NCBI GenBank assembly: GCA_951804945.1
Contig: OX638149.1
Location: 23,002,001-23,066,000, forward strand
Length of the DNA: 64,000 nt
Direction of reading: 5' to 3'
From: Podarcis cretensis
Taxonomy: Eukaryota
Shown here: in pieces, positions 1-6,910 of the stretch
Layout: each line of letters starts with the position of its first letter
Numbering within the stretch: position 1 is the stretch's first letter
Program-made: the position numbers and the translations under genes
Notes under the pieces: model-generated
Databases searched by the model: none
What the model was told of the DNA's origin: nothing
What the model saw: only the letters and a program-made list of their open reading frames with translations

Positions 1-772
1 CAAGGGGTGCCATAACTGGGCTTCTGAGGCTTCCGGAGCACATTTTCCCCCAGGGGAGCTGCAGAAAGAATGTACTGGGTCAAAGGAGCCATGAGACTCA
101 GAAAAGGTTGAAAACCTCTGATATCTGCTATTCTCACCAATATTTGTATCTACTGTTTAATAGAAAAGGAAATCTCCAAGGCGTTTATGTGAAATACAAG
201 GAGAAAAATTAATTCAAATTAAAAATAAAGCAAGAATATTCAGATTTTTTTTTTAAAAAAAGCAAAATAAAAACAGAATATAGCATTTCCCTTTATTTCT
301 CATCTTTATTTATTTAGCAAAATCTATATACTACTTGACTGTATAAAATAAAACAATGAGAATTGATAAAAAAAACCAAGTCAAAAATATGTTTTAAAAG
401 ATTATTAAAATCAGCAGTAACTAAAATAAGATTAAAACATGCAAAGGTCTACATGTCTGCTTAGGCTTGCCTATCAGAGTGGCTGCAGAAACCCAGCCAG
501 ATGGCAGATGGGCGGGGTATAAGAAACATAATAATAATATAATAAAAAAACATTTAAAGCAGGCACTGAAAAGAGTACAGTGAAGGCACCTGTCTGATAT
601 CAATAGGCAGGGAGTTCCAAAGTGTGGGGTACTGCCACACAAATAGACTGTTTTCTATAAGCGTGGAAGGAGTATTACGTGGCACCTGTAAATGATCCTG
701 CAAGGTAACTGATCTTAAGCTGTTGAGGGCTTTACATACTAATAGTTACACCTAGGCATTGGCTATAATTTT

Positions 773-2500
773 TTTTTTTAATAATATTTATTAAAAATTT
801 TCCAGAATAAAAAGGAAAGATAGCAAGAAAGAAAGAAAAAACAAATATGATTTACACTTGGTTTCAGTGGCATCTTTCCCGGACTTGCCCCCCTCCCCCT
901 CTTGTATTCCATTTCCCTTAAATTGATTCCACAGATTCTTACCCCAAATTTTAAAACCTTATTTGTAATTTTAAATAACCCATTTATTCCAAATTAATTT
1001 ATCTTATTTATCTTAATGAACCATTTCTCCTTATATTTTATATAATTCCCTAAGATCGACCCCATTTCCCTCCCACGAATTCCCCTATTTTCAAACAACA
1101 AACATGAAAAAAGAAAAGAAAGAAATAATATATAATTTTACAGCCTTTGGATTCCAAATCTCTCCCCCCCCCCCATTCCCCGGTTCCAATCCCCAAAGTT
1201 CATCCATTGTCTACTGCCAGCCTGGTGTGTCCACGTCTATATCTCAACTCCACTTTGCCGTCTTTTGATAGCTTTTAATTTCAGAAAGTCCAATCTCGAA
1301 AAAACTCTCAGAAAAAGTCATTGTTCTTCCATCCAGACCTCTATGTTTAAGAGTCTAACTTAAATTCTATTTCTTGGTCCTTTTAAAGTCTGGATGTTCC
1401 AAATACTCCGGCTTCAAATTTGGTCCAGCTCTTATTCCTCAGGCTGCTTTTTCCTGTTCTGCTGCAGAAACCTTCTAATTCAGAAACTTCTTGTTCTCCA
1501 CAGAGGCTTTTGTTATTCAGGAACATAACTTGCGTCAAGTCCCTTCCTTTCTTCAATAGATAAATCCATTGTCTCCTTTAGTATAGAAACCTCTGTAGAC
1601 AAAATAATGCTTCGTTTTTGCAGCTTTCCCAAGAGATAACAGATCCTGCTCAAATTCATAGTATTTTTCCACTTGCTGCTACTGTTGCAATGTCCCAGCC
1701 TCCCTCTAGAGGGAATATGGTAACTTAATTTCTTTCAAAATCAGACCCAAAAGTCAAATAACTTGTTGCCTTTATTTCCAATAATTTATGTCCAAATTGT
1801 AACAAATCTAACCAGCAAAGCCATCGTAACAAAGTTCTCTTTTATTTTCCTGCTTTGACAGCTACTTTGACAGCTGTCAGAGTTTCTGTGTCTCTTCACC
1901 AGTCTCTCATAGCGGATCGTTCCCGGTTCCCGGGGGGGTTGCATTTTAGTTCCCACAAATCAGTCTTCTCCTCCAGCACAATTATTGTAATTTCCCTTCG
2001 TGAAGTTAAATTTTTTTTTCAGGTAAACAAGTTCATCTCTCGATCTTAGTTGTCAAATCCTTGCGTTGAGCCATCTACAACAGGGGGGGCGGACTTCCTT
2101 TTTGCACTCCCCCCGCTCGCTCCAAATTCAAAGATCAAATTTCCCTTTTAAGTCCAATCAATTTACTCACGGGTTGTTCCTTTTAGTCCAAATCCGAAAT
2201 TTTCAAAGAAGAAGTCGTTGCTCTCCGCCAAATGGCATGCGGCTTCGCTGGGCAGGGGAAGCATTGGACTCACAGCACCACACACCCCCCCGTCACCCGC
2301 TCCGCAGCCTTTAAAAAGGCTCCTTCGCGGGTCGGGGGGGCGCAAACGGTGCCCGCCGAGTCACCAAGTCCATGGGCATCTCCGCCCATGGTTTTTGAGG
2401 GTCCCCGCGTCGCCGGCACGGCAGGACCCGACCCCTACCCAGCCGACTCCCTCCGGAGCTCGGAGTCCGCCATTCGGCGATGGCGCCGACCCGGAAGTCC
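773..2500 (-). mobile_element. Full-length non-autonomous L1-type retroelement, about 1.73 kb
   Basis: Perfect TSD GGCATTGGCTATAATTTT at 755-772 and 2501-2518. Empty site reads TTTT/AA, the L1 endonuclease consensus. Minus-strand 5' end GGACTTCCGG...AATGGCGG is CpG-rich. A-rich body, G-rich 3' tract, AATAAA then poly(A). No long ORF. Confidence 0.85.
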
Positions 2501-4065
2501 GGCATTGGCTATAATTTTAAGACTGAATGGGGTAATAAAAGTAACTCTGCACCGGATCAAAGACATTTCCCCGCCTTACTTCACATCATGTTTCAGGAGG
2601 TGTTGAAAACCTCTCTCCCCGCCCCCTTTCCCCATCATTTCATTTATTAATTGCTTCCTACGAGGCATTTACAATATAATAAAATATTGTTACGGTTTGG
2701 CGGTGTTAAGCTTGGGTGCCATGATCCTTCCAAATCCTGGATCCAGTAAATGTTAAACTATAAGCCAGGCTAGCTTTCATGAAGAGAACAAAGGGTTAAA
2801 GGGGTTCGTGCAATACAAAAAAATGGGCTTGGCCCCCTCCCTCAACAGACAATGCCAGAGTTTGGAGTAGAATTTTTGGGATGTGATGTGGAGAGAGAAT
2901 TTTACAAAGGTGAAATTTGCATTCATTGCCCAAATTTGCCTCTGGCCTTATGGTGTCTGCAAAGAATGTGAATTGAAAAAAGTTACCATACATGCCTGAT
3001 TCGGATGCTACTTTTAAAGATGTGTGTGTGTGTGTGTGTGTGTTCCCGTTGCCACACTCCTTCTGCATCTCAGCCCAATCCTCACCACCGCCTTGGAGCA
3101 AATTATTATTATTATTTTATTATTTATTCAATTTATATACCACCCTTTCTCTAAAGATCCCAGGATGCTGCCCAACATTGAGAACATAATTTACACAGCA
3201 TAAGAATAAAACCACAATAATAAAATAATTAAAAAGAAGAACAGGTTCTGCCCCCTACATTGAACAGGTCATAGAATGGCTGAAGACCTGGGTAAAGAGG
3301 AATGTTTTCTCCTGACGCCTACAGACACGTAATGATGGCAGCAGGCGAGCCTCTCTGGGAAGAGCATTCCATCGATGGGGAGCCACCACAGAAAAGGCCC
3401 GTTCTCATGTTGCTACCCTCTGAACCTCTCAGGGAGAGGGGAAATAGAGAAGGGCCTCCGATGACAATTGCAGGGCCTAGGGCTGGGGCTGGACACATCA
3501 AAGAAGCGTCTCAGTTAAACGCGTTGCTAACTTTGTATGAGAAATTGGGTAAGCAAAACATGGAACTCCACAGCGCCACCTGGTGTCACAGTGTTAGAAT
3601 GCATAAACAATACATATAAAGCGTTTTTTCTTTGCCAATGTAGCTGAGTCCCAGGTCACTTTGTATGGGGAGAGGTGGTCCTTAAGGTATTGAGGTCCTG
3701 AGTTGTGTAAGGCTTGATAGTTCAGCACCAGCGTTTTAAACTGGGCCCGGAAACTGACAGCCAGTGCAATTAGTGGGTAGGAGCAGGTTGCTCTCATTTG
3801 ACTGCACTCCCCCTCTAGATTAGAAAAGGACAGGCAAGCAGGCAGCAATGGTAAAAGGACTGGTGCCCCCCCCAATTGCTGATGTGTAGGCCTTGGCACA
3901 TGCTTGAGGATGCTAATGTCTGGCACTGACTCTGCACTCTCCACATGCTTAGAAGCAGCTGATGTCTCACAGTGTGGAACTGGTGTGTGTGTGTGTGTGT
4001 GCTTGGAGCTCTTAATGAGCCTCCTAAGCATCAAATCCTAGGGGACAAGTTCTATTTGGACCCTA

Positions 4066-5555: not shown

Positions 5556-5589
5556 TGATGCCACAGTGGGAGAAGAAGAGCCGCTCTGC

Positions 5590-6910
5590 ACGAGCTCAGA
5601 GGCACCCTCGCCACCCGGGGGGGGGGGGGGCAAAGCAGAACACGGGAATCCTCCGCAGAGGTGGCGAGGGGAGGCACCGGGGTCTCTTTTAAAAGTCTGC
5701 CCGTGCCGGGCGAGCAGCCCCCGGTGACCTCCGCGGGGGTTTCATCCGAGGAAGCGGCACGCGGCGGCCGCCGCTGTCCGCGCAGCGCTGCCCCCTGCCG
5801 GCACCGTCGATTCCCGGGCCCCGTTTCCTTCCTTCCCCTTCTCCTTCCCCCTTTGGCTCCGGCGACGTCGATCCGAAGCGAGGCGCGCTGGTTTCCCCTT
5901 GCGGAGGCCGGCCGCGTCCCCGGGCTCTCCGGCCCCGCTGAGCCCCCGCTTGAGGGCGTGTCCTCCCGGCGCCCCCCAACCTTTCGCTGCTGGCCGGGGG
6001 CGGCGAGAGGAGGAGACCGGCGTCGCGGGAGGAAGTGGAAGCGGCGGCGGCGGCGGCGGCGAATAGCGGGCAGGCGGAGAAGGCTTTGCAAGCAGCCGCG
6101 CACCAAGGAGGCTCCGGAGACTCGCCAGCTTCGCCCGGGTCTTTCCCGTCCAGGCTCCGGGTTCCCGCCGCCTCGGGCCATCGCGGCTCCTGGGAAGCGG
6201 GAGGCGGCGGCGGCAAGCAAGCAGCAGCTAGCCTCCGCCTCCGCCTCGGCGCCTGCTCCATTATAAAACGGGCAGAGGAGGAAGGAGAAGCCGGAGAGGC
6301 TCTTCCCGTCGCCTCGGAGCCTTCCGGGATTCGCCTCGCCGCCGAGGGGCCTGCAGAAAAGGGTTGCACCCAACTTGCTGCTAGTGCTGCTGGCGGATCT
6401 GAGCCCTGCAAGAAGCCCTTTGGCGGGGCGAAGTTTCCGGATGGCTGCTGAGAGATTTCCCTCCCTGGCCATCCCCGCCTCCCCCTCCAGGGGTTCTGCT
6501 GCTTAAAAGGAGCGAAATCCCAAATAGATGTGAAGCAGGAAGCTTAGAGACCTGCCCTCCCCCTCCCCCTCCAGAGTGCCCAGGCACCCGAGAAAGACTG
6601 AATGGGTGTCCTGTAGAGACAGACACGCGCGTGCATATAGAGAGATATATGCAGATTTCCAAGTGAGTGCCCGCATCATTTTTCTTTTTGCATACGGGGT
6701 GCCTTTCCCGACGCGCACGCACCCTCCTCCTCCTCCTGCTCCTCTTCTTTTTTCCAAAAGAATAACTTGCTCCGGGGTGCAAGTGGAAGGGAAGATGCAG
6801 ACGTTTCTGAAAGGGAAAAGGGTTGGCTATTGGCTGAGCGAGAAGAAAATCAAGAAGCTGAATTTCCAGGCGTTCGCAGAGCTTTGCAGGTAAGGAGCGA
6901 GGATCGGCGG
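5590..6910 (+). promoter_or_regulatory. ITPK1: CpG island / promoter and 5' UTR region of ITPK1
   Basis: Abrupt rise in GC and CpG density just upstream of the first coding exon. Contains GC-box-like GGGGCGG motifs, a (GCG)7 run at 6041-6061 and a TATA-like TATAAAA near 6262. The TSS cannot be placed from sequence alone. Confidence 0.85.
6795..6889 (+). CDS. ITPK1: ITPK1 first coding exon (MQTFLKGKRVGYWLSEKKIKKLNFQAFAELC + first 2 nt of Arg codon)
   Basis: Translation matches the known vertebrate ITPK1 N-terminus. ATG at 6795 has A at -3. The 95 coding nt end at a canonical donor CAG|GTAAGG (intron starts 6890), phase 2. Confidence 0.97.

Follow-up and report, generated by a model that had tools for sequence, protein, structure and literature searches.

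Within a 64,000-nucleotide stretch of the Podarcis cretensis genome (assembly GCA_951804945.1, contig OX638149.1, positions 23,002,001 to 23,066,000; hereafter the window), an insertion of about 1.7 kb lies upstream of ITPK1 and bears the marks of L1-mediated retrotransposition while holding no long open reading frame (ORF). The question raised by this locus is whether such an element belongs to a family at all and, if so, whether that family never had a gene or has lost one. The evidence assembled here indicates that it is very probably a recent copy of a gene-less family, termed F1, whose ancestors were half-L1-like members of a single lizard L1 lineage and whose copying is likely carried out in trans by proteins that intact L1s supply. 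The original prediction, made from the window alone, was of a non-autonomous L1 parasite, and it is borne out by L1-derived ends, an ORF-less family and separate target-site duplications (TSDs) at many loci. In the following list of its parts, L1-B is one of two L1 lineages with which the element was compared (L1-A being the other), sister families are short gene-bearing relatives, and F3 is a second gene-less family.

773..2500 (-): whole element, a member of F1; 1728 bp, young gene-less family
2501..2518 (no strand): TSD copy on the element's 5' side; exact 18 bp, with the TTTT/AA nick site at 2515-2520
755..772 (no strand): TSD copy on the element's 3' side; exact 18 bp
2171..2500 (-): CpG-rich 5' head; start motif of L1 type, putative internal promoter, covarying multi-helix RNA structure
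2165..2173 (-): splice-donor-like motif immediately following the structured head; candidate donor, in all related families
1670..2164 (-): remainder of the L1-derived 5' untranslated region (5'UTR), including two conserved palindromic motifs
about 1240..1668 (-): decayed sister-family gene; three frames, stops, original ATG gone, ~65-codon internal deletion
1513..1659 (-): 48-codon ATG stub, a remnant of the gene's N-terminus; in 75 of 81 F1 copies, broken in F3
773..1040 (-): L1-B-like 3'UTR; G-rich motif, AATAAA (792-787), short A tail

A young family with L1-derived ends

The anatomy described in the original prediction was recovered throughout: the duplications at 755-772 and 2501-2518 are identical over 18 bp and cannot be extended further, the TTTT/AA target lies where expected, AATAAA (element position 1709) precedes an A tail that is short (7 A plus 4 A overlapping the TSD), the 5' end is CpG-rich (2150-2500: GC 0.62, CpG observed/expected 0.97), the body is A-rich (windows of 30-40% A), G tracts occur near 1165-1175 and 890-900, and the longest sense stop-to-stop frame spans 73 codons. 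The insertion had also been called recent. In public DNA contigs from four runs of one organism and one study, two runs (X2, X3) contain an empty allele in which 754 is joined to 2501 through a single TSD copy whose 18 letters fit both sides, and the insertion is therefore polymorphic; the other two runs (X1, X4) yielded only contigs that stop at the filled junctions.

A DNA search of the element's own genome returned 3247 candidates, and all 40 of the matches scored were near full length at 98-100% identity. Exact end motifs, counted as a guard against ranking bias, occur 295 times (5' 19-mer) and 344 times (3' 22-mer), the latter figure contradicting a single-copy sequence, which had been named as one outcome that would speak against the original prediction. 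Thirty fetched F1 copies measure 1728-1740 bp and differ pairwise by 1.14%; their majority sequence, from which they diverge by 0.63% (3.1% at CpG sites and 0.46% elsewhere), has no sense frame longer than 73 codons. When loci were picked by the 5' motif alone, 39 of 40 proved to be elements of ~1.72 kb (the remaining one had been fetched on the wrong side), eight of them from older subfamilies at 88-92% identity. On contig C1, 22 of 35 matches to the 3' motif pair with an exact 5' motif, and 30 of the 35 copies reach the 5' end, three others lacking fewer than 100 bases and two being clearly truncated. TSDs of 10-23 bp flank 64 of the 75 full-length loci, and the T/purine run that the L1 endonuclease is expected to leave at the TSD start is present at 35 of these 64, against 18% in controls. 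Many copies with TSDs of their own and an ORF-less consensus had been named as the outcome that would support the original prediction, and that is what these ~1.72-kb copies and their majority sequence provide.

Both ends of the element are intact and trace to L1-B, a lineage located beside one F1 copy. The L1-B 5'UTR (~910 bp) shares 70% identity with element positions 3-436 (E 1e-54), the two remaining colinear to about position 830, and at the other end 62% identity (E 4e-11) links the last 270 bases of the element to the L1-B 3'UTR; L1-derived UTRs and the decayed gene account for most of the element's length. Of 20 L1-B loci, three carry ORF1 together with an ORF2 frame of 1246-1247 codons, and identities within L1-B subfamilies reach 99%, which places the activity of this lineage in roughly the same period as that of F1. 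L1-A, the first lineage recovered (via RVT_1, 20 loci), has little in common with the element beyond the 5' start motif, and no ORF1 similarity to the element was obtained from those 20 loci. Combined into one profile, the ORF1 proteins of both lineages match human ORF1p structures (PDB, E about 1e-8). Pfam left intact ORF1p of this genome unrecognised and assigned no family to the element's three read-through frames; a genome search with PF02994 likewise gave no match and is uninformative, because its control also matched nothing. The ETS- and YY1-like motifs of the original prediction are present at the 5' terminus, where they are better described as resembling the known terminus of lizard clade-1 L1s, given as GACTTCCGGTGN8ATGGCG in the 5'-terminus section of the lizard L1 study (PMC5381506), with a longer spacer in the element.

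Three F1 copies (L101, L105, L136) lie directly beside related elements: one is within ~60 bases of an L1-B 5' end, one immediately follows the A tail of an F3 element, and one has a gene-bearing sister 330 bases away. A 319-codon frame at L062:8944-9900, on the downstream side of an L1-A copy, is taken to resemble a copia-type gag-protease.

Gene-bearing relatives and the loss of the gene

The genome also holds a radiation of 1.8-2.2-kb sister elements that have a related head, TSDs and an A tail, lack ORF2, and carry one gene of about 170-220 codons, which in one sister family is open for at least 200 codons in 18 of 22 copies. Ratios of nonsynonymous to synonymous substitution (dN/dS) for this gene are 0.38, 0.40 and 0.41 in three sets (pairwise Nei-Gojobori, open frames only, with CpG sites possibly inflating dS), and by this estimate the gene is under purifying selection. 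A DNA profile of the same gene finds two matches inside the element (nhmmer E 3.9e-18 and 3.7e-19). The closest coding relative found (L377) has an intact gene of 222 amino acids and 76% DNA identity to the element over the first kilobase, and its protein can be traced through three reading frames of the element, interrupted by stops and by a missing stretch of ~65 codons. From this starting point, a decay series can be followed: an element at the base of the F1 branch (L308) still has the original ATG along with a frame of 81 codons; F1 retains a 48-codon stub that begins at a later ATG; and F3 (L251-L280), a second young gene-less family of ~1.61 kb with TSDs of its own, 1.3% pairwise divergence and a 5' end located at 24 of 30 loci, has lost the stub's ATG and carries a frameshift within it.

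With L1-B as outgroup, a tree built from ~860 columns of 5'UTR for 42 chosen rows unites the 12 gene-less rows in a single clade (100/100) that falls within the gene-bearing elements; the limited number of columns and some backbone forks below 90 count against the reading drawn from it. A 19-mer common to the heads of the clade has 1030 exact matches in the genome. Among 40 previously unseen loci that bear the clade's head, none has an L1 ORF1p downstream, one holds an intact sister gene and 26 have a TSD-bounded length of 1.55-1.92 kb. Taken as sequence comparisons, these results support a half-L1-like element that became gene-less, as opposed to one that never had a gene. The term 'non-coding' used in the original prediction accordingly holds in that the family master has no ORF, and needs amending in that the family is gene-less by loss and carries the wreck of a sister-family gene.

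The sister elements are read as half-L1s with a remodelled ORF1, and there is a minor yet appreciable chance that their protein is something else, namely a passenger of different origin, in which case the ancestor would be a new L1-dependent element and not a HAL1, with F1 as its gene-less offshoot. Position and sequence weakly suggest descent from ORF1p: the gene follows an L1-B 5'UTR, in the place that ORF1 would occupy, and a sister-protein profile aligns colinearly and specifically with L1-B ORF1p (13.5-26.5 bits, 4 of 4 above all 200 shuffles), not with L1-A ORF1p (0 of 6 above shuffles), a second weak colinear match lying at the C-terminal domain motif. Several results weigh against that descent. 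A deeper profile scores 3-17 bits against ORF1p, hhalign gives probabilities of 0.2-4%, and no ORF1p appears among the protein's PDB results or its 14 matches in 1.84 billion protein representatives, the 10 of these that were looked up being unnamed assembly proteins. The absence of any Pfam, PDB or named match for the sister protein is what a passenger would lead one to expect, and the top ESM Atlas scores (0.76) are a lead at best. Conservation falls on an N-terminal helix and a C-terminal motif around a variable middle (P0001-P0012; L171-L192, L231-L250, L341-L390), unlike ORF1p, in which it centres on the RRM and C-terminal domain, and AlphaFold is confident in the N-terminal helix only (pLDDT of 32 and 53 for the predictions), both of which also favour a passenger.

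A less probable account, to which we give little credence, is that F1 is an ordinary HAL1 and that its ORF1 decayed separately in each copy once inserted, or that the 48-codon stub still works as a mini-ORF1. Such an account could draw on the presence of the ATG stub in 75 of the 81 F1 copies and on the purifying selection acting on the gene of close relatives. Since F1 copies differ by only ~1%, however, intactness of the stub is expected without selection, and eleven ATGs precede it. Decay after each insertion is contradicted by the breaks themselves, which recur identically in the majority sequence of young and older subfamilies alike and also uphold the earlier view that the missing ORF is a family property. 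F3 is equally young yet lacks the stub, and a role for the latter as a required mini-gene was rejected on that ground. Retrocopies of a host non-coding RNA, amplified like processed pseudogenes from one source gene, would share with F1 the poly(A), the TSDs and the want of an ORF. This origin is largely refuted and scarcely credible, given that homology to an L1 lineage is found at both ends and that several successive subfamilies evolve in parallel, which requires mobile masters.

Two further observations concern the sister gene and its protein. Six near-identical copies of the gene, spaced at ~4.3 kb, lie at G000 C13:41550831-41573219 in what is apparently a tandem array. A database protein of 503 amino acids (P0013) that resembles a retroviral envelope carries part of the sister protein C-terminally, probably through read-through into an inserted element.

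A folded 5' head and the probable route of mobilisation

The first 331 nt of the element fold with a z-score of -6.9. In a comparison with 25 shuffles each, heads of gene-less elements range from -5 to -10, those of gene-bearing sisters from -1.6 to -4.8, those of L1-B from -3 to -4.6 and those of L1-A from -2.7 to -3.6; three control stretches of the ITPK1 island gave +0.7, +1.5 and -1.8. Across 28 heads, four of them from autonomous L1-B, 96% of cells pair, and compensatory changes affect 22 of 73 pairs, a level reached in none of 500 shuffles and compared with 7-14 pairs in slid controls. Within the fold, a hairpin forms at about 2391-2370, and a long-range helix joins bases ~190 nt apart (about 2443-2432 with 2257-2247), 7 of its 11 pairs showing compensatory change. 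The fold was derived from the same 28-head alignment on which it was scored, and relatedness among the heads is incompletely controlled, both of which count against it; as judged from this alignment, a covarying RNA fold is common to the gene-less heads and the autonomous L1-B 5'UTR (L141-L170, L281-L300). The element in the window lacks four bases in one head hairpin.

The fold ends at the splice-donor-like motif, which is kept in related families (75/81, 21/24, 20/22, 10/11 and 25/27 copies). Among the fetched loci there was no spliced copy with a deletion starting at this motif, and one narrow pattern for spliced-looking sister copies had 0 matches. Farther into the 5'UTR, two palindromes (about 1860-1880 and 1698-1711) are conserved across families; one of them, absent in its exact form from L1-B (0/27), presumably resembles a TGIF/MEIS-type binding site. 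The 3' end of the element has no unusual fold (z -0.2). Rfam returned no match near threshold for the element, and a search for A or B box patterns found none in it; by its sequence it would not be classed as a short interspersed element (SINE) transcribed by RNA polymerase III (Pol III), which is recognised by a tRNA, 7SL, 5S or snRNA head with Pol III boxes. A literature search for a 5' RNA fold in reptile L1s returned no description, and the section on the 5' terminus of lizard clade-1 L1s describes none (PMC5381506).

A plausible route of mobilisation can be outlined. The 5' head would act as an internal Pol II promoter, and the resulting polyadenylated RNA of 1.7 kb would be bound in trans by ORF1p and ORF2p of an autonomous L1, most plausibly L1-B, copies of which still have both frames open; insertion would then proceed by target-primed reverse transcription. 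The whole lineage likely depends on the folded head as RNA, a feature that may let gene-less RNAs compete for L1 proteins. Two points weigh against parts of this outline. The promoter, start site and polymerase are predictions, and L1-A retains many ORF2 frames of 1244-1257 codons and shares the 5' start motif with the element, which makes it a second candidate for the helper.

L1 proteins prefer the RNA that encodes them, and Alu RNA is delivered to the L1 machinery by its Alu domain. A more ambitious and distinctly tentative proposal is that the 330-nt covarying head acts in cis to bring its RNA to the L1 machinery and defeats this cis preference. Such a signal, if real, might underlie first the half-L1 radiation with its remodelled protein and then the protein-free clade, in which some thousand heads are intact and activity continues, as a long, L1-derived Pol II counterpart of a SINE.

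Known relatives and the setting of the insertion

The nearest described counterparts are the HAL1 elements of mammals, which, in the sources' accounts of their structure, have an L1-derived 5'UTR and 3' end, poly(A) and TSDs, lack ORF2 and depend on L1 in trans (PMC5753468, PMC3627910, PMC13756887). F1 resembles them in its L1-derived 5'UTR and 3' end, its poly(A), its TSDs, its lack of ORF2 and its probable dependence on L1 in trans, and its gene-bearing sisters fit the HAL1 layout. HAL1 is characterised as keeping ORF1, with cis-encoded ORF1p inferred to be required (PMC3627910), whereas F1 has no intact ORF1, having lost the gene in its master lineage, is still spreading, and inhabits a reptile. 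The relevant passages of a 2018 survey give ORF-absent derivatives of long interspersed elements (LINEs) only for RTE, Ingi, Vingi and R2 and place HAL1 among those with ORF1 present (PMC5786205). The bipartite ORF-absent LINEs named there (RIME, NARTc, Vingi-1_EE derivatives, Bov-A, RTESINE and R2-derived elements) are described as probably transcribed by Pol II and moved by the parent LINE; they share with F1 the combination of LINE 5' and 3' parts, the lack of a protein and multiple copies with TSDs, while F1 differs in coming from the L1 clade, in its size of 1.6-1.9 kb, and in having arisen via gene-bearing short intermediates, not by one deletion from a full LINE.

SVA is portrayed as a non-coding L1 passenger whose new insertions are mostly full length and which needs ORF1p and ORF2p in trans (PMC3287187). 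F1 is likewise non-coding and mostly full length, with trans mobilisation the probable route, but SVA, as set out in that account, combines hexamer repeats with an Alu-like region in a composite structure (PMC3287187), while F1 consists of L1's own UTRs and a dead gene. The lizard clade-1 L1s are presented as autonomous elements of about 6.4 kb with ORF1 and ORF2, with no mention of the terms 'non-autonomous', 'nonautonomous' or 'HAL1' in the text of the study; the 5' terminus motif and a long CpG-rich 5'UTR conserved between families are shared with F1 (PMC5381506). Compared with autonomous L1s in general, F1 lacks intact ORF1 and ORF2 and is ~1.7 kb long instead of about 6 kb. A literature search, with subscription papers, Repbase Reports and supplements outside its scope, returned no description of a gene-less element from lizards or from the L1 clade. 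By this comparison with the literature F1 would be new, Dfam and Repbase lying outside the comparison, and automatic repeat libraries may hold it unlabelled.

With F1, L1 joins the clades that yield gene-less derivatives. One genome holds the full series of autonomous L1, gene-bearing short elements, truncated-gene elements and at least two young protein-free families, so that both the need for ORF1p in cis and the RNA feature that captures L1 proteins become testable with natural variants. The findings also point to RNA structure in the 5'UTR of a reptile L1, and the family supplies polymorphic full-length CpG-rich inserts, one of them 3 kb from ITPK1, the nearby feature of which is as follows.

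6795..6890 (+): ITPK1 first coding exon; PDB match E 1.6e-16, CpG island at about 5560-6500

The island begins ~3.1 kb from the 5' end of the element, which points away from it, in agreement with the distance of about 3 kb and the orientation originally proposed; the proximity of the element to ITPK1 is so far incidental. On its other side, the insertion adjoins a decayed frame at 554-745 (-), which we take to resemble the C-terminal end of an L2/CR1-type reverse transcriptase; this region is a repeat, as judged from its high depth in the run contigs.

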